DNA of 32,000 nucleotides. Origin: Candidatus Saccharimonadota bacterium (GTDB lineage Bacteria; Pseudomonadota; Gammaproteobacteria; Enterobacterales; Enterobacteriaceae). Positions 3,438-11,765 of this stretch are shown here, in pieces. Location of the stretch: assembly GCF_964059045.1 (NCBI RefSeq), contig NZ_OZ060402.1, forward strand, positions 300,001 to 332,000, written 5' to 3'. Position numbers and translations under genes: made by a program. Numbering within the stretch: position 1 is the stretch's first letter; each line of letters opens with the position of its first letter. The notes under the pieces are model-generated. The model worked only from the letters and a program-made list of their open reading frames with translations, was not told the DNA's origin and ran no database searches.

Positions 3438-4430
3438 TTATTTTTTAATTGATATCCATAAAGGATTTTTTCCTACTGGATAACGTTGAATAAGTTTTAA
3501 AAAACCTGTCTTTAAATTGATACAATAAATACTAATAAAATTAGATTTTTCTCCTGCTACAATTAAATATTTTCCATACATATCAATATCAAACGATCTA
3601 GGTTGTAATTCTGTATTAATATTTTGTATTAGCATTAAAAAACCGTTGGATAAATTAATTTTAAAAACAAAAAGCATACTAGTATTTCTATCTGTAGCAT
3701 ATAAATATTTTCCAGTTGGTGATATTCGAATTTCTGATGACCATGGAACTCCATTAAAATTTTTAGGAATAAAAATGATATTTTGAATATGTTTAATAGA
3801 ATTATTGATATGATCAATATGCCATGCATCAATCGTACCGTTTAATTCATTAATATGGTATAAATTTTTTTTATTTGGATGACATACAATATGTCTTGGT
3901 CCGGATTTTTTATTAGTATTTACATATTGTTGATTATTGTTGATACATATTGTCTGTTTATAAAAATTATATAAATAAATTTTATCTTTTTTTAAAGCAG
4001 AAACAAATAAAAATTTTTGACTGTAGTCGATAACGCAAGAATGACATCCATCTAAATTATAGATATTTTTAATTATTTTTTTTGGATATCCTAATTTATT
4101 TAATAAAATTACAGTTAGTAATCCAGAATGGTAAGAACTATAAATCAATAATTGTTTGTTTTTGTGAATAGCAAGATAATTAATTGCATCATTAATTTTA
4201 AAACAAAATATTTCTTTAATCATTCCTGATTCTAAAATTTGATAACAAATAATTTTATTTTCTGGACGTATACCTACATAAAGTATATTTTTTTCTTTAA
4301 ATATTTTTATAGGTTGAGCTTGACCATTAATCGGAATTATTTGTATTAATTTTAATATTCCATTTTCATTTAGCTGCCATACTTCAATTTGATTACTACC
4401 TGTAGTAGAAATATAAACATATTGATACAT
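3438..4430 (-). CDS. pgl: 6-phosphogluconolactonase (YbhE family beta-propeller)
   Basis: 330 aa versus 331 aa for E. coli Pgl, colinear over the whole length. Examples: GPRHIVCHPN vs GPRHMVFHPN; QPRSFDIDMYGKYLIVAGEKS vs [27 protein letters not shown] SD precedes the ATG. Confidence 0.9.
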   Translation of the reverse strand: MYQYVYISTTGSNQIEVWQLNENGILKLIQIIPINGQAQPIKIFKEKNILYVGIRPENKIICYQILESGMIKEIFCFKINDAINYLAIHKNKQLLIYSSYHSGLLTVILLNKLGYPKKIIKNIYNLDGCHSCVIDYSQKFLFVSALKKDKIYLYNFYKQTICINNNQQYVNTNKKSGPRHIVCHPNKKNLYHINELNGTIDAWHIDHINNSIKHIQNIIFIPKNFNGVPWSSEIRISPTGKYLYATDRNTSMLFVFKINLSNGFLMLIQNINTELQPRSFDIDMYGKYLIVAGEKSNFISIYCINLKTGFLKLIQRYPVGKNPLWISIKK

Positions 4431-4903: not shown

Positions 4904-7297
4904 TTAATTTTTATTATCAAATATTCTATTTTTATATAGTAATTTAATAAAATTTAAAATCCATTTTAATATATCTTGATTATTAAATAAATTATGAATA
5001 AATTTTAATTTATTAGAACTAATGATATTCCATTGATTAGGTTCTAATTTTATTTTTTCAACTAACCAATTAAAATTAATATCATGATTATGATGAAATA
5101 TTATAAATCCTTCTTTTTTTCTAGAATAAATTTTTTTAATGCCTATATTATTGGATAAAATACGAATAACAGTAATAGTAATTAAATTTTTTACAGGTTC
5201 TGTCATAATTCCAAAATGATAAATTAATTCATTTTTAATATTGTTTATATCGTTTTTAGAATGACAATTTGAAATTTTTTTATAAAAGTTAATACGAGTA
5301 TTAACATCAGAAATATAAGTTTCTGGTAATAAAGCAGGAATATTAATTTCTATTTCTGTATTATGTACATTGATTTTTTGAGCATATTGCTTGCCCCACT
5401 TTTTATACATACTTATAGTATTTTGTAACATTTCTTTATAAAGAACAACACCAATTTTACTCATATGACCGCTTTGGTCATGACCAATGATTTCTCCCAT
5501 TCCTCTAATTTCTAAATCTTGATTAGATAAAATAAATCCATCACCAATGTTTTGACAAGAATAAATAGAATCAAGTCTTTTTTTTGCATTATCATTAATA
5601 TTTTTATAGTTTTTTATTAATAATAATACATATGCTTGTTGATGAGAACGACCAATTCTTCCTCTTAATTGATGTAATTGTGCTAATCCAAATTGCTCAG
5701 CTTTTTCAATAATCATGGTATTGGCATATGGTATATCAATTCCAGTTTCAATAATTGTTGTACACAGTAAAATATTAAATTTTTGATTATAAAAATCATG
5801 CATTATTTTTTTTAAATTTGTGCTATTCATTTTACCATGTCCAATTTTTATTTTTGCTTCTGGTATTAATTTATTTAACTGTATAGCTTTTTTTTCAATA
5901 TTTTGAATAGAATTATAAATATAATAAATTTGACCTCCTCTAAGTAATTCTTTAAGAATAGTTTTTCGAATTAGATTTATATCATATTCTATAATTATTG
6001 TTTTAATTGCTAGTCTTTTTTCTGGGGGGGTTGTTATAATTGATAAATCTCTAATACCATGCATAGCCATATTTAATGTACGTGGAATAGGAGTAGCTGT
6101 TAAAGTTAATATATCAATATTAGTAAATAATGATTTTATTTTTTCTTTATGTATCACACCAAATTTATGTTCTTCATCGATAATCAGTAATCCTAAATTA
6201 AACCATTGTATATTTTTTAATAACATTTGATGAGTTCCAATTAAAATATTTAATTTTCCTTCTTTAGCTTCATTAATAGATAATGATATTTCTTTTGGTT
6301 TACATAATCTCGATAACATTTTTATTCTTACTGAACAATGAGAAAAACGATCAACAAAATTATTGTAATGTTGTTGTACTAATAGTGTAGTTGGTACTAA
6401 AATAGCTACTTGTTTTTTATTGACTGTTGCTATAAATGATGCTCTCATAGCTATTTCTGTTTTTCCAAAACCAACATCTCCACAAATTAAACGATCCATA
6501 GGTATTGGTTTTTCCATATCATTCAATACTTCATTAATTGCTTTATCTTGATCTATTGTTAGAACAAAAGGAAATTTTTTACAAAAATTGTTATATTTTT
6601 TGGATTTTAAATTAAAAGAAAAACCTAATTTAGTAGCTCTTTTGGCATAAATATCTAATAATAATGCTGTAGAATCATATATTTTTTTTTCAATTTTTTT
6701 TCTTTCCCTGATCCATTGATCATTGCCTAATTTATTTAGTAAAATATTTTCATTAGATGTATTACTATAATGATTAATTAAATTTAAAGAAGTAATAGGA
6801 ACATATAATTTAGCTTTTTCTGCATATTCAATAATACAATATTCATTATTAATTCCATTATTTTCCAACATTATTAAACCTTTATATCGACCAATTCCAT
6901 GTTTAAAATGAACAACTAATTGATTAAGATTTAATTGAAATTGATGATTTAATTCTTTACCTTGGTTTTTTTTATGATATTGATAAAAAGGTGAACAGAT
7001 GAGTTGGTTGTTTAAAATATCTTTAACACAAAGACAAGCAATATTATTTTTTTGATCAATAAATCCATATTTTTTTTCTTTAAAAATAAAAAAATATTTT
7101 TCTGATTTATTTATATCTAAAAATTGTTTGATATTAAATTCATATATTTGTTTTGGTAAAATTTTAAAGTAAGATATTATATTTAATAAATGATAATAAT
7201 TTTTTTTACTTTCAACAAAAAATATAATTTTCCCCCGGAATACATTTAAAAATAATTCAAAATTTTTTATATTTTTTTCTTGTGATGAACATATCAT
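4904..7297 (-). CDS. mfd: transcription-repair coupling factor, N-terminally truncated form (797 aa vs 1148 aa in E. coli)
   Basis: The alignment starts at about E. coli residue 345 (FLETFDGPVVFSVESEGRREALGELLARIKI vs FLNVFRGKIIFFVESKKNYYHLLNIISYFKI). Retained elements: the RNAP-interaction region (VVHFKHGIGRYKGL), Walker A GDVGFGKTE, DEEH, TATPIPRTL, QLRGRIGRS, and the C-terminal domain. No SD is visible at the ATG, so the exact start is less certain. Confidence 0.9.
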   Translation of the reverse strand: MICSSQEKNIKNFELFLNVFRGKIIFFVESKKNYYHLLNIISYFKILPKQIYEFNIKQFLDINKSEKYFFIFKEKKYGFIDQKNNIACLCVKDILNNQLICSPFYQYHKKNQGKELNHQFQLNLNQLVVHFKHGIGRYKGLIMLENNGINNEYCIIEYAEKAKLYVPITSLNLINHYSNTSNENILLNKLGNDQWIRERKKIEKKIYDSTALLLDIYAKRATKLGFSFNLKSKKYNNFCKKFPFVLTIDQDKAINEVLNDMEKPIPMDRLICGDVGFGKTEIAMRASFIATVNKKQVAILVPTTLLVQQHYNNFVDRFSHCSVRIKMLSRLCKPKEISLSINEAKEGKLNILIGTHQMLLKNIQWFNLGLLIIDEEHKFGVIHKEKIKSLFTNIDILTLTATPIPRTLNMAMHGIRDLSIITTPPEKRLAIKTIIIEYDINLIRKTILKELLRGGQIYYIYNSIQNIEKKAIQLNKLIPEAKIKIGHGKMNSTNLKKIMHDFYNQKFNILLCTTIIETGIDIPYANTMIIEKAEQFGLAQLHQLRGRIGRSHQQAYVLLLIKNYKNINDNAKKRLDSIYSCQNIGDGFILSNQDLEIRGMGEIIGHDQSGHMSKIGVVLYKEMLQNTISMYKKWGKQYAQKINVHNTEIEINIPALLPETYISDVNTRINFYKKISNCHSKNDINNIKNELIYHFGIMTEPVKNLITITVIRILSNNIGIKKIYSRKKEGFIIFHHNHDINFNWLVEKIKLEPNQWNIISSNKLKFIHNLFNNQDILKWILNFIKLLYKNRIFDNKN

Positions 7298-7637
7298 ATT
7301 GAATAATAATTATAGTTAGAATGAATTTAATTGTTTTAAAAATTATATATCAATTTAATAATTAATATTAATATTTTAAACAAATATTTATTATAAAAAA
7401 ATTATTTATTTTTAATTTTTTATAAAATTTTCAATCAAATATAATGCAATTATATATTAATAATAACAATTCATTGTATATATTTAAATGAAATTAAAAA
7501 TTTTAAGTAGATTTTTAATTTCAAAAATCTTATTAATTTTTTAAAATTTATTAAAATAATTTTATTTTTATTTTGATATTATTAAATATTTATTAAACAT
7601 TCAAAATATATTATCTTTTAAACATAAACTAAATAAA

Positions 7638-7684
7638 TTAACAATCTAAAAATATTATTTTTAATAATATTTTTAGATTGTTAA
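7638..7684. repeat. 47-nt perfect hairpin (22-bp arms ttaacaatctaaaaatattatt / aataatatttttagattgttaa, loop ttt)
   Basis: The reverse complement of the left arm equals the right arm exactly. It lies in the middle of the 913-bp gene-free mfd-gapA spacer. Confidence 0.85.
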
Positions 7685-8225
7685 AAATAAAAAATCATTC
7701 AAAATATAAATATATATAAATTTATTATTGATATGGATTAAATTTTAAAATTTTCATTATTTTCTATAAAAATATCAAAAAAATTAACATTAATACATGT
7801 TAATGAAGTGATCAAAAAATTATTTAAATATAAGAATATTTTATTTTAATTAATTTTTATTATTTTTAAAATAATACACAATAATTATCGTAATACATTG
7901 ATTTTTGATAAAAACATTTTATTTAAATTGTAAATTAATATAATAGTTATTATTTTATTAATATTTTATTAATTTAATTTATTAATTAATATCAATAATT
8001 TTGAAACAATTACACATATTTTATCAATTGATTTAAAATTTTTTAAGCTTTTTTAAAAAAAATATAAATTATATTTTTTAAAAAAATATTGTATAATTTA
8101 ATAATAAAGTCATTTTTATAAAATAATTTTTAATCATTTTAAAATTTTTATAGTATATATATACTATATATCTATAATTTTTAAAAATATAATCAATTTT
8201 TTAATTTAATATGATGGTGATATTT

Positions 8226-9230
8226 ATGACTATTAAAGTAGGAATTAATGGTTTTGGTCGCATTGGTCGTATTGTTTTTAGATTAGCACAATATCGTTCC
8301 GATATTCAAATTTTAGCAATTAATGATTTAATTGATCCAGACTATATATTATATATGTTAAAATATGATTCTACACATGGAACATTTAATGAAAAAATTA
8401 CCATAGATAAAAACAATTTAGTTATCAATGGTAAAAAAATTAGAATATCTTCTGAAAAAGACCCATCACGGTTACATTGGAAAGATTTAGATATTGATGT
8501 TGTTATAGAATCAACGGGTCTATTTTTAACTTCTGAATCTGCTTATAAACATATTTTAGCAGGAGCTAAAAAAGTGGTTATGACTGGTCCTTCACAAGAT
8601 AATACTCCGATGTTTGTTAAAGGAGTTAATTTTGATTCATATAAAGGACAAAAAATTGTTTCTAATGCATCGTGTACTACTAATTGTTTAGCACCATTAG
8701 CTAAAATCATACATAATAATTTTCAAATTATAGAAGGTTTGATGACTACCGTACATGCTACTACAGCTACACAAAAAACAGTAGATGGTCCTTCAGCTAA
8801 AGATTGGAGAGGTGGTAGAGGTATTTTACAAAATATTATTCCATCTTCTACAGGTGCAGCAAAAGCAGTAGGTAAAGTTATACCAGAATTGGAAGGTAAA
8901 TTAACAGGAATTGCTTTCCGTATTCCAGTTTCTAACGTATCTGTTGTAGATTTAACAGTTAGAATTAAAAAATCGGTTATATATGCAGATTTATGTAATA
9001 TCATTAAACAAGCATCATTAACAGAAATGAAAGGTGTGTTAGGATATGTTGATGAAGAAGTTGTTTCAAGTGATTTTAATTCATGTGAATTCACATCTAT
9101 ATTTGATTCTAAAGCAAGCATAGTTTTAAATAAAAACTTTTTAAAATTAATATCATGGTATGATAATGAAACTGCTTATTCTAGTAAAGTGCTCGATTTA
9201 GTTTCCTTAATTCATTCAATTAAAAAATAA
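8226..9230 (+). CDS. gapA: glyceraldehyde-3-phosphate dehydrogenase A
   Basis: [19 protein letters not shown] is identical to the E. coli GapA N-terminus. Other motifs: catalytic [12 protein letters not shown] and [10 protein letters not shown] place the start at ATG 8226 because GGTGA lies 7 nt upstream. The tracked ORF start at 8211 adds 5 unconserved codons. Confidence 0.95.
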
Positions 9231-9352
9231 TACAATAAATTGAATTGCAATTAATATAATATAAAAAATAATTCACAATATTATAATAATATTGTGAATT
9301 ATTTTTTATATTATATTAATTGCAATTCAATTTATTGTATTATTTTTTAATT
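9218..9352. repeat. 135-bp perfect palindrome (two 67-nt arms, centre 9285) filling the gapA/fldA convergent spacer and overlapping the gapA stop codon
   Basis: Every position i from 9218 to 9352 is complementary to position 18570-i, verified base by base. The first mismatch is 9217 c against 9353 t. Confidence 0.95.
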
Positions 9353-9365
9353 TATTTAGATTTAT

Positions 9366-9902
9366 TTATATTATAACATTATTTTTTTCTATTAAATATA
9401 TTTCATTAGTAATTTGGTTAACCCATTTTTTAATTCTAACTAAACTTTTTTCTGGTTGTCTATCTTGATCTAATGTTAATCCATAAAAAAAATCATTGTT
9501 TACCATAGCTTGAGAATTAATAAAAGAATATCCTTTAGTAGACCATTGCCCTATAAATTTTATTTTTGGAGAATATATTTTTTTATACAATAAACCTATT
9601 GCATCACAAAAATATTCTGAATAATCTTCTTGATCTCCACATCCAAAAAAACCTATAATTTTTTGATTAAAATTTATTTTTTTTAAAATTGGCAAAAAAT
9701 CTTCCCAGTCAGATTGCATTTCACCATAATACCAAGTGGGAACACCAAACAATAATATTGAAAACGATTCCAAATCTTTTTTAATACAGGAAGATATATC
9801 ATGAATAACAACTGGATATGGTTTTAAAACATCATATAATAAATTAGCCATGGATTCTGTATTTCCTGTATCACTTCCAAAAAAAATTCCAATTTTGTTC
9901 AT
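9366..9902 (-). CDS. fldA: flavodoxin I
   Basis: 178 aa versus 176 aa in E. coli. Motifs: FMN loop GIFFGSDTGNTE, PTWYYGE, FGCGDQEDYSEYFCDA, DQDRQPE. Confidence 0.93.
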   Translation of the reverse strand: MNKIGIFFGSDTGNTESMANLLYDVLKPYPVVIHDISSCIKKDLESFSILLFGVPTWYYGEMQSDWEDFLPILKKINFNQKIIGFFGCGDQEDYSEYFCDAIGLLYKKIYSPKIKFIGQWSTKGYSFINSQAMVNNDFFYGLTLDQDRQPEKSLVRIKKWVNQITNEIYLIEKNNVII

Positions 9903-10252
9903 GTTTTAAATTACCATTAGTAATAATTTTAAAAATGTTGTATTGAATAATATTTAATAATATTATATATATGAAATTATTATTAACTACAATAAATTAT
10001 TTTTTTTTATTATTATTGAAAAAATCTTTATAAAAAGAATAATATATAGTTATATTTAAAGATAATTATATTATAAATATAAAAGTAATATTTTTATATT
10101 TATATTAATTTAATTTTTATTTTAAAAATTAACAAAATAAACTATTCAATATTTAAAATATTTTCATTATTAAATATAAAATTGTTTGATTAATTAATAA
10201 ATATTCACAATATAAAAAATTATTTTTTTAATGAACTATATTAATTCAAATA

Positions 10253-10295
10253 ATATTAATATTTTATATATATATTTTATATAAAATATTAATAT
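10253..10295. repeat. 43-nt hairpin (18-bp all-A/T arms, 7-nt loop) 43 nt upstream of phrB
   Basis: i pairs with 20548-i for 10253-10270 against 10278-10295. The stem is pure A/T, so chance occurrence in this composition is not negligible. Confidence 0.6.
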
Positions 10296-10337
10296 AATAA
10301 CTATATGATTTTTAAACTTTGTGTTTTTAATTAAAAT

Positions 10338-11765
10338 ATGAACAATCATCATTTAATTTGGTTTAGAAATGATTTAAGAATTACAGATAACTCAGCTTTA
10401 TATTTTGCATGTAAAAATCAATTTAATAAAGTTTCTGCTTTATTTATAGCTACTCCTAAACAATGGTTAAAACATTATGATTCTCCTAAAAAAATTGTTT
10501 TTATGTATGAACATCTAATATTATTACAAAATAAATTATATGATTTAGGAATTATGTTATATTTTTATCAAACAAAATATTTTGTTGATTCTATAAAATA
10601 TGTATTAAAATTTTCCTTAAAATATAAAATAAATCATATATTTTATAATTATCAATATGAAATTAATGAAAAAAAAAGAGATAAAATATTAGAAAAAATA
10701 TTATTTAAACATAATATTGCTGTTAGTGGTTTTCATGATAGTTGTTTAATTTCACCTCAATATATTCAAACTCAAACAGGTTTAACTTATAAACGTTTCT
10801 CTCCTTTTTATAAAAAAATAATTAAACAATTAAAATTTACAATACCAAAATGTTATCCAGTTCCAAAAAAAAGATATTTTCAAAATATTTTTTTTAAAAA
10901 ACATATTGCTTATTTTGATTTTCCTTATGAAAATATTAATAAAAATATTTTTCCTATAGGTGAAGAATTAGCATTAAATAATTTAAAAAAATTTTTTCAA
11001 AATAATTTTAAAAAATATGTTGATAAAAAAAATTTTTTGTTCAAAAACTATACTAGTCTAGTATCAGCATATTTAAATATTGGAGTATTATCATCCCGAC
11101 AATGTCTGAATATTTTAGTAAATTATTATCCAAATATCATATATTTTAATCAAAAAAGTGATTGGTTTCATCAATTAATATGGAAAGAATTTTATCAACA
11201 TTTATTAGAAGGATATCCACTATTAAGTAAAAATCATTCTTTTTATAATTGGGAATCAAAAATCCCTTGGAGTAATAATAAAAAAAATCTAACAGCATGG
11301 AAAAATGGTCAGACGGGTTATCCAATTATAGATTCTGGTATGCGACAGTTAAATAAAATTGGATGGATTAATAATCGGATGAGAATGATTACTGCTAGTT
11401 TTTTAGTTAAAAATCTTCTAATTGATTGGAGACAAGGTGAAAAATATTTTATGTCTCGTTTAATTGATGGTAATTTTTCAGCCAATAATGGAGGATGGCA
11501 ATGGATTGCATCTGTTGGTGTAGATAGTTTGTCTTATCTTCGTATATTTAATCCTGTTCTTCAGTCAAAAAAATTTGATCCAAAAGGTTTGTATATTCGT
11601 CATTATTTACCAGAAATAAATTCTGTTCCTAAAAAATATATTCATGATCCACATGTTTGGATAAAAAAAAATAATTCTCAATTAAATTATCCAAAACCAA
11701 TTATAGAATATTCAAAAACTAGGGAAAATACATTATTAATTTTTTCACAAGCATTAAAAAAATGA
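10338..11765 (+). CDS. phrB: deoxyribodipyrimidine photolyase (class I CPD)
   Basis: 475 aa versus 472 aa for E. coli PhrB. Motifs: LIWFRNDLRITDN, HIFYNYQYEINE, TGYPIIDSGMRQL, NRMRMITASFLVKNLLIDWRQGEKYF, NNGGWQW. By eye the three Trp of the electron-transfer triad (E. coli W306/W359/W382) are conserved. Confidence 0.93.
   Translation: MNNHHLIWFRNDLRITDNSALYFACKNQFNKVSALFIATPKQWLKHYDSPKKIVFMYEHLILLQNKLYDLGIMLYFYQTKYFVDSIKYVLKFSLKYKINHIFYNYQYEINEKKRDKILEKILFKHNIAVSGFHDSCLISPQYIQTQTGLTYKRFSPFYKKIIKQLKFTIPKCYPVPKKRYFQNIFFKKHIAYFDFPYENINKNIFPIGEELALNNLKKFFQNNFKKYVDKKNFLFKNYTSLVSAYLNIGVLSSRQCLNILVNYYPNIIYFNQKSDWFHQLIWKEFYQHLLEGYPLLSKNHSFYNWESKIPWSNNKKNLTAWKNGQTGYPIIDSGMRQLNKIGWINNRMRMITASFLVKNLLIDWRQGEKYFMSRLIDGNFSANNGGWQWIASVGVDSLSYLRIFNPVLQSKKFDPKGLYIRHYLPEINSVPKKYIHDPHVWIKKNNSQLNYPKPIIEYSKTRENTLLIFSQALKK

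Follow-up and report, generated by a model that had tools for sequence, protein, structure and literature searches.

The convergent genes gapA and fldA, located in a 32,000-nucleotide stretch of contig NZ_OZ060402.1 (positions 300,001 to 332,000 of the forward strand; this whole stretch is referred to below as the window), are separated by a spacer that is nearly filled by a perfect palindrome of 135 bp. Our in silico analysis suggests that this structure may be a very young enlargement, brought about by template switching, of a bidirectional terminator shared by gapA and fldA, in which an inner core would still be at work while the outer part would be a tolerated by-product. We regard this interpretation as probable by a modest measure. 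The genome is that of Buchnera aphidicola (Eriosoma grossulariae), which possesses a chromosome of 606,948 bp; FldA encoded in the window is 100% identical to the protein of this bacterium, and for nine other window proteins, exact matches were found in this one record and nowhere else.

Structure of the palindrome and its flanking genes

A repeat search followed by a base-by-base check resolved the palindrome and the two genes that border it into the following parts.

8226..9230, plus strand: gapA, type I glyceraldehyde-3-phosphate dehydrogenase, 334 aa, assigned by NCBIfam and by identity to the deposited protein
9218..9284, no strand: left arm of the palindrome, 67 nt with 9% G+C, whose initial 13 nt are the 3' end of gapA
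9285..9285, no strand: centre of the palindrome, a single unpaired A; in the folded strand the loop comprises 3 nt, 9284-9286
9286..9352, no strand: right arm of the palindrome, 67 nt, matching the left arm exactly in reverse complement
9366..9902, minus strand: fldA, flavodoxin, 178 aa, convergent with gapA, assigned by NCBIfam and by identity to the deposited protein

The two arms are complementary at 67 of 67 positions. An initial annotation of this DNA had described a perfect 135-bp palindrome in which every position has its partner and no spacer separates the arms; the perfection of the arms stood up to inspection, whereas the remainder of that description is off by one base, the unpaired A at 9285. 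Likewise, the distance from the right arm to the fldA stop codon (9366-9368) is 13 nt (9353-9365) and not the 14 nt given there. The gapA-fldA spacer measures 135 bp and has a G+C content of 10%; the palindrome takes up 122 of its 135 bases and, in addition, 13 nt of gapA, so that the left arm includes the end of this gene, namely its final three sense codons and its stop (ATT AAA AAA TAA). This overlap with the gapA stop codon, the U-rich 3' side of the predicted transcript and the gap in size to the other hairpins of the window had all been described before and were borne out by our analysis.

The palindrome compared with chance and with related DNA

Given the base composition of the window, which yields a per-position match probability of 0.33, about 2e-27 palindromes of this kind would be expected in it. 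Comparison of the RNA folding energy with dinucleotide-shuffled controls, a check that the initial annotation had proposed, placed the palindrome well below the shuffles, with a minimum free energy of -75.8 kcal/mol vs -18.1 +/- 3.1 (z = -18.7); folded as DNA, it reaches -61.2 vs -14.6 +/- 2.4 in the shuffles (z = -19.3). Maximal perfect stems in the shuffled intergenic spacers of the window had mean lengths of 8-10 bp and did not exceed 17 bp, and the runner-up perfect stems in the window itself measure 22, 22, 18, and 18 bp. Among 86 related gammaproteobacterial loci, which together provide 1.56 Mb of comparison DNA, the longest perfect stem is 21 bp.

Perfect stems of at least 18 bp are found five times in the 32-kb window (67, 22, 22, 18, and 18 bp) vs six times in the 1.56 Mb of comparison loci, and three of these six belong to other Buchnera. 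Perfect hairpins are also present in divergent spacers of the window, namely a 22-bp stem at 7638-7684 (between mfd and gapA) and an 18-bp stem at 10253-10295 (between fldA and phrB), and both are longer than in every shuffle of their own spacers. Since these two hairpins are situated where a terminator would be purposeless, and since perfect stems are present in excess, their occurrence points to a mutational source. This suggests that a process generating perfect hairpins acts in this Buchnera genome, and the E. grossulariae Buchnera lineage may be unusually prone to them.

A nested geometry resembling a bidirectional terminator

The palindrome contains two layers in which an A-tract on one side pairs with a T-tract on the other.

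9263..9307, no strand: inner core, composed of A6 (9263-9268), a 16-bp stem (9269-9284/9286-9301) with 2 G:C pairs, and T6 (9302-9307)
9222..9227, plus strand: outer A6 tract, corresponding to two Lys codons of gapA, which pairs with the outer T6 tract
9343..9348, plus strand: outer T6 tract, which together with the T-rich flank at 9353-9365 forms a second terminator-like layer for gapA read-through

The inner core is identical on both strands, each of which presents the stem directly followed by U6, and it is placed in the spacer of two convergent genes (gapA on the plus strand, fldA on the minus strand); as judged from the sequence, its geometry is that expected for an intrinsic terminator acting in both directions. 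For an RNA of 48 nt covering the core, the predicted folding energy is -19.5 kcal/mol (z about -7.6 to -8.2). The outer A6/T6 pair is positioned 41 nt beyond the inner one, and in simulated co-transcriptional folds the hairpin lengthens smoothly as the 3' arm emerges. Because the inner core is the first combination of a stem and a U-run that would be met from either side, the distal outer 44 nt should be transcribed only on read-through. RNA polymerase arriving from gapA would accordingly be predicted to stop at the inner 16-bp stem and U6, at about 9302-9307, and polymerase arriving from fldA at the mirror image, at about 9268-9263, with the outer A6/T6 layer serving as a possible back-up for read-through. 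A ribosome that ends translation of gapA would have to melt the base of the stem, since the stop codon is located inside it. That the palindrome might be a bidirectional terminator had been proposed before, and this idea fits both the nested A6/stem/T6 arrangement on the two strands and the presence of hairpins in the corresponding spacers of all seven other Buchnera that we inspected.

Hairpins in the same spacer of other Buchnera

We compared the orthologous gapA-fldA locus of seven other Buchnera, all of which have kept the convergent arrangement of the two genes (7/7). Two of these loci came from a genome-collection scan with an FldA alignment, whose results were dominated by free-living Enterobacterales, and the other five were obtained by exact-protein look-ups. 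Their spacers and best perfect stems are as follows.

E. lanigerum Buchnera: spacer 572 bp, best perfect stem 15 bp, loop 9
E. harunire Buchnera: spacer 651 bp, best perfect stem 16 bp, loop 9
Tetraneura sorini Buchnera: spacer 292 bp, best perfect stem 8 bp
Tetraneura ulmi Buchnera: spacer 212 bp, best perfect stem 10 bp
Pemphigus obesinymphae Buchnera: spacer 116 bp, 20-bp stem without loop, i.e., a perfect 40-bp palindrome
Acyrthosiphon pisum (APS) Buchnera: spacer 325 bp, best perfect stem 13 bp, loop 8
Baizongia pistaciae (Bp) Buchnera: spacer 145 bp, best perfect stem 8 bp

Neither the 135-bp palindrome nor anything alignable to it is present in these seven spacers. In the spacer comparison that the initial annotation had called for, the palindrome was found in none of the seven (0/7) and some hairpin, unrelated in sequence, in each of them (7/7). 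The E. grossulariae hairpin is more than three times as long as any other Buchnera hairpin at this site. We conclude that a hairpin in the gapA-fldA spacer is the rule among these Buchnera and that its sequence turns over, and the presence of hairpins in all seven spacers suggests that a terminator hairpin at this site is the ancestral state. This agrees with the literature, in which intrinsic terminators of Buchnera have been described as conserved in position and not in sequence (PMC3164680).

The 40-bp palindrome of Pemphigus obesinymphae (locus L003, 3204-3243) is rich in A8 and T8 runs and reads ACATTAAAAAAAATAAAATT up to its centre and AATTTTATTTTTTTTAATGT from there on. Tetraneura sorini (locus L001, spacer 10517-10808) and T. 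ulmi (locus L085, spacer 3517-3728) have in common an imperfect hairpin of 83-93 nt, in which one pair change is compensatory and three are half-compensatory and whose base, conserved and containing G+C, has the form CATCCATTGA...ATTAATGGATG; this hairpin could represent a conserved terminator or a small RNA.

Homology of the E. grossulariae arms to the spacers of the relatives was considered and rejected: permissive BLAST searches gave many equivalent alignments of 62-68% anywhere in these spacers, i.e., compositional noise, and none of the relatives' hairpins can be aligned to that of E. grossulariae as a precursor. As a separate observation, the fldA-bearing Logan contig ERR13998916_719 of the T. 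ulmi symbiont (L086), which was assembled independently from short reads, ends 215 nt past the gene, which is about the length of the 212-bp spacer in the finished genome (L085). This indicates that the extremely A+T-rich gapA-fldA spacer breaks simple assemblies.

Origin of the palindrome

What we observed directly is the structure of the palindrome, its unique occurrence, its layered terminator-like build, its abrupt borders and the fact that relatives do not have it; a mechanism of origin, an age and a termination activity are inferred. Complementarity drops abruptly from 67/67 within the arms to 8/30 positions outside them, so that identical arms change without transition into unrelated flanks, as is typical of template switching. 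Neither a direct repeat nor a target-site duplication flanks the edges of the palindrome, and a second copy of the arm is absent both from the 32-kb window and from the seven other Buchnera loci. The perfect arms in combination with the abrupt edges argue for a single copying event and against gradual decay or gradual selection. Since the spacers of the congeners E. lanigerum and E. harunire (572 and 651 bp) contain ordinary hairpins and no palindrome of this kind, the event appears to be lineage-specific and to have been accompanied by a shortening of the spacer to 135 bp. The transition from fully complementary to random sequence and the absence from these congeners are in agreement with the recent fold-back or template-switch duplication envisaged in the initial annotation.

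Template switching is known to turn imperfect inverted repeats of Proteobacteria into perfect ones, and it does so more strongly when the arms are longer (PMC5941160). RecA and almost all recombination proteins are missing from Buchnera (PMC1193525); template switching is a RecA-independent process. We envision a pre-existing hairpin made up of an A-tract, a stem and a T-tract, which would have served as a shared bidirectional intrinsic terminator of gapA and fldA. In the course of replication, the nascent strand would have folded back at this hairpin, or would have continued on a template across the fork; an inverted copy of the sequence flanking one arm would then have been made before synthesis returned to the original template, thereby extending the arms to 67 nt. 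The return switch probably skipped or deleted most of a longer ancestral spacer, and RecA-independent hairpin-templated copying may later have erased newly arising mismatches. The outer 40-odd bp of each arm are probably a by-product of this process, and the enlarged repeat would be tolerated in this genome, which is poor in recombination.

The C-termini of the GapA proteins bear on the direction of copying. The protein encoded in the window ends, ahead of its stop codon, with ...LIHSIKK, and its counterparts end with ...LIHSY in E. lanigerum, ...LIAVS in E. harunire, ...LISI in T. sorini and ...LIAS in Pemphigus. GapA of the E. grossulariae symbiont is thus 2 aa longer than that of E. lanigerum, and the two sequences part where the palindrome begins, at its first codon. 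It is therefore possible that copying produced the outer left arm, in which case the trailer of fldA, inverted, would have replaced the final codon and the stop of gapA. The initial annotation had taken the right arm to be the copy; this is not established, since the left arm starts where the likeness of GapA to the E. lanigerum protein ends and either direction fits. Within the arm (9218-9284), a weak internal direct repeat, AAT.TAAAAAATAAT..ACAATA, is located at the start and recurs 41 nt inwards (shuffle P ~0.04), and a local 10-bp palindrome, AATTGCAATT, is present as well. Both may be traces of stepwise growth, or they may be due to chance. The substitution rate of Buchnera, as put forward by Moran and colleagues in 2009, is reportedly roughly 1e-7 per site per year; at this rate, 134 paired bases would gain a mismatch in the order of 1e5 years, and the palindrome would be either that young or subject to correction.

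A number of points weigh against the enlargement of a shared terminator by template switching. The short ancestral hairpin is assumed and was not seen, residual homology to the arms is not detectable in the spacers of the relatives, and none of these is close, the identity of FldA to its nearest counterparts being 68% in E. lanigerum, 63% in E. harunire and 61% in T. ulmi. Intrinsic terminators have a G+C-rich stem, which is missing here: of the 16 bp in the core 2 are G:C pairs, and of the full 67 bp 6 are. A consensus terminator scan of the region 7300-10400, in which a stem had to contain at least 3 G:C pairs, returned no site, although a threshold of this kind may ask too much of a genome whose G+C content is 21%. 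What speaks for the putative terminator activity is the geometry. Furthermore, in a genome that evolves fast, selection or continuing correction could explain 134 perfectly paired bases just as well as recency does. The reality of the palindrome, its age and the direction of copying are all judged from one deposited assembly.

Alternative explanations

The source genome was obtained from PCR-amplified (12 cycles) 2x251-nt HiSeq libraries and was assembled with SPAdes 3.11.1, using k-mer sizes (k) up to 127 and manual inspection of the graph. Fold-back chimeras generated by end repair or the 12 PCR cycles, or a wrong join of two contig ends in this extremely A+T-rich, poorly covered spacer, might mimic an inverted copy that the chromosome does not have. 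Such an artefact is made conceivable by the exclusive use of short reads from amplified libraries, by the G+C content of the spacer (10%), a range in which PCR-amplified Illumina libraries generally lose coverage, and by the fact that the 135-bp palindrome exceeds the largest k by just 8 bp; moreover, the genome authors mention "low-complexity sequencing artefacts" elsewhere in these genomes. The window proteins (nine exact matches among ten looked up) occur in a single NCBI/UniRef record only, exact-protein look-ups of FldA, GapA (with two start choices) and the window protein P0001 found no contigs of a second assembly, and an exact 28-mer of the arm is absent from JGI metagenomes. On the other hand, reads of 251 nt are able to cover the whole palindrome together with unique flanks, and since k = 77, 99, and 127 are all larger than the 67-nt arm, the de Bruijn graph should be unambiguous; the way in which the assembler works implies that each 127-mer of the contig must be present in the reads. 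An artefact would require two false junctions, one at 9285 and one at 9352/9353, both of which would have to beat the true high-coverage path. The genomes of the E. lanigerum and T. ulmi symbionts, assembled with the same pipeline, have nothing of the kind between gapA and fldA, and comparable palindromes of Blochmannia have turned out to be real. We therefore consider an artefact to be quite unlikely.

A real palindrome might nevertheless be old and be kept perfect by continuous RecA-independent hairpin-templated correction, possibly following stepwise outward growth. The abundance of perfect 18-22 bp hairpins in the window, two of them at sites where a terminator is unnecessary, would be in keeping with such a process, as would the preference of template switching for perfect repeats, which is more pronounced in longer arms (PMC5941160); the nested A6/T6 layers and the weak internal direct repeat (P ~0.04) could mean stepwise growth. 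However, no related genome contains an intermediate, nothing alignable is present in the congeners, and a single event accounts equally well for the one sharp boundary. This makes ongoing correction unlikely in our view. The full 67-bp duplex might also be selected for an RNA role beyond termination, for example as an RNase III processing site or as a barrier to 3' exonucleases by which the stability of the abundant gapA and fldA mRNAs is set. For a read-through transcript of either gene, the predicted perfect duplex has an energy of -72 to -76 kcal/mol and is far longer than the roughly 20 bp that RNase III needs, and the conservation of a hairpin of about 90 nt with one compensatory change in the two Tetraneura Buchnera indicates that long structures are constrainable at this site. 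Yet the distal outer arm would rarely be transcribed if the inner core terminates, in which case the long duplex would seldom form; the relatives manage with stems of 8-20 bp; and selection on RNA pairing would leave room for G:U pairs and bulges instead of yielding Watson-Crick identity at 67/67 positions. An Rfam search with the palindrome recovered no family above threshold, the sub-threshold matches (snoR130, mir-308) being attributable to chance. Selection for the full duplex, which had been one of the earlier proposals, thus found no indication in our analysis, as the inner core should end most transcripts before the distal outer 44 nt, and we rate its chances as low. Finally, insertion of a mobile palindromic element of the MITE, REP, ERIC or RPE type could have supplied gapA with its new last codons and stop codon. 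The left edge coincides with the point where the likeness of GapA to its closest relative ends, the protein is 2 aa longer, and 135 bp is close to the size of ERIC or RPE elements; but the palindrome is present in a single copy in 32 kb and in none of the seven other Buchnera loci, it has no target-site duplication, and it matches neither the ERIC2 core within 3 mismatches nor any Rfam family. To our knowledge, Buchnera carries no transposases or active mobile elements, and we judge such an insertion to be very improbable. A hairpin telomere or protelomerase junction was rejected by reasoning: the flanks are different, unique genes and the arms end at 67 nt. We know of no protelomerase in Buchnera.

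The enlargement of a shared terminator by template switching, which remains our preferred explanation, can be extended to the genome at large. The E. grossulariae Buchnera lineage might experience raised hairpin-templated switching, e.g., after the loss of a 3' exonuclease by which such switching is otherwise suppressed, so that terminator hairpins would become perfect, grow outward into long palindromes and be kept perfect by RecA-independent concerted evolution. We view this extension as speculative and rather doubtful. Were it true, it would reveal a natural runaway growth of palindromes in a bacterial chromosome, with the gapA-fldA element as its extreme product.

Relation to known systems and significance

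Bidirectional intrinsic (Rho-independent) terminators between convergent genes are known classically from tonB/P14 in Escherichia coli, and were later found genome-wide by full-length RNA profiling. The palindrome resembles them in its location in a convergent spacer, in its symmetric hairpin and in the A-tract and T-tract flanks, which are present here twice in a nested fashion. It differs from them in that the stem is 4-6 times the usual length, is nearly free of G:C pairs and overlaps a stop codon. Long perfect palindromes engineered into E. coli by the Leach laboratory are unstable through SbcCD cleavage. These constructs are similar in size to the Buchnera palindrome, are perfect and are able to form a lagging-strand hairpin or a cruciform; in contrast to E. 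coli, however, the Buchnera group lacks most recombination and repair nucleases. The argument of the initial annotation that persistence is noteworthy because of SbcCD is weakened accordingly, as it was built on E. coli, whereas Buchnera is RecA-less (PMC1193525) and palindromes of 64-136 bp persist in Blochmannia (PMC3017870).

The genomes of Blochmannia, which are endosymbionts of ants, contain 6-20 palindromes each, with lengths of 62-136 bp and a nearly exclusively intergenic location (PMC3017870; PMC3268670). Four palindromes of B. vafer measure at least 100 bp, and these repeats disturbed both assembly and Sanger sequencing (PMC3017870; PMC3268670); Blochmannia palindromes of 64-136 bp were confirmed by manual closure with reads (PMC3017870). 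Like the Blochmannia palindromes (Williams and Wernegreen, 2010; PMC3017870), the Buchnera palindrome is found in an A+T-rich, RecA-less enterobacterial insect endosymbiont. When viewed by the definition used for Blochmannia (an inverted repeat of at least 30 bp, at most 3 mismatches, a gap of at most 20 nt and an at least partly intergenic location in the reduced genome of an enterobacterial symbiont; PMC3017870), it has 67-nt arms, 0 mismatches, a 1-nt gap and 122 of 135 nt in intergenic DNA. The Blochmannia repeats differ in having been scored with up to 3 mismatches and a gap of up to 20 nt and in occurring several times per genome, whereas the Buchnera palindrome is perfect and the sole one in 32 kb. 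In the literature, we found no report of palindromes of this length in Buchnera.

Quasipalindrome correction, as described by the Ripley model and studied by the Lovett laboratory (PMC5941160; PMC7202029), has in common with our case the perfect arms, the sharp edges, the independence from RecA and the outward growth. The documented events usually involve a few bases and arms of 5-20 nt, and the extension by 40-50 nt in combination with a deletion that we propose here would be larger than these standard cases. The 40-bp palindrome of Pemphigus obesinymphae, in turn, is found in the same spacer of a symbiont from the same aphid subfamily and likewise combines perfect arms with A-runs and T-runs. 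Its arms measure 20 nt instead of 67 nt, its sequence is unrelated, and it touches neither gene. It represents an independent example of this type of structure, on a smaller scale.

The presence of the palindrome is confirmed as an observation, and it is extreme in degree, with about three times the length of any perfect hairpin in the 1.6 Mb of comparison DNA. It does not constitute a new kind of system, given that bidirectional terminators, template-switch palindromes and the long palindromes of Blochmannia are already established. If real, it would be the longest perfect natural palindrome that we found reported or observed for Buchnera, and it would provide a natural snapshot of template switching that enlarges a terminator hairpin and shortens a spacer in a RecA-less genome. 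It would further demonstrate that genomes of this type tolerate palindromes of about 135 bp. In practical terms, the site is worth verifying in the deposited assembly, and it could serve as a marker for population studies on the birth, correction and decay of palindromes.

Neighbouring genes and chromosomal position

In six relatives with complete genomes (loci L081, L082, L083, L084, L085, and L001), the gapA-fldA locus is positioned at about 48-54% of the chromosome, i.e., roughly opposite the conventional origin. A replication terminus or dif-like site in the window was considered, but gene by gene the GC skew at third positions fluctuates too strongly for a switch to be placed at 9.3 kb, and the GC skew of the whole sequence tracks the orientation of the genes.

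The window has an intact photolyase gene, phrB (10338-11765). In E. harunire (L082, 3195-5000), T. ulmi (L085, 2552-3000) and T. sorini (L001, 9583-10000), the region between ybgI and fldA contains neither a called gene nor a long open reading frame, and phrB seems to have been lost or pseudogenised in these three Buchnera. On the other side of the palindrome, Mfd (4904-7297, minus strand) comprises 797 aa and matches positions 366-1147 of a profile of 1148; its N-terminal third, the UvrA-interacting module, is missing. Mfd is likewise short in E. lanigerum (800 aa), E. harunire (816 aa) and Bp (697 aa), and the open reading frame at the mfd position of Pemphigus (L003, 4905-8369), which was assigned by its position, encodes 1154 aa. 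In other Buchnera (APS, T. ulmi), lolCDE has been kept between mfd and gapA. The corresponding spacer upstream of mfd in the window (7298-8225) measures 928 bp, has a G+C content of 8%, and probably holds the eroded 5' part of mfd along with the remains of lolCDE.

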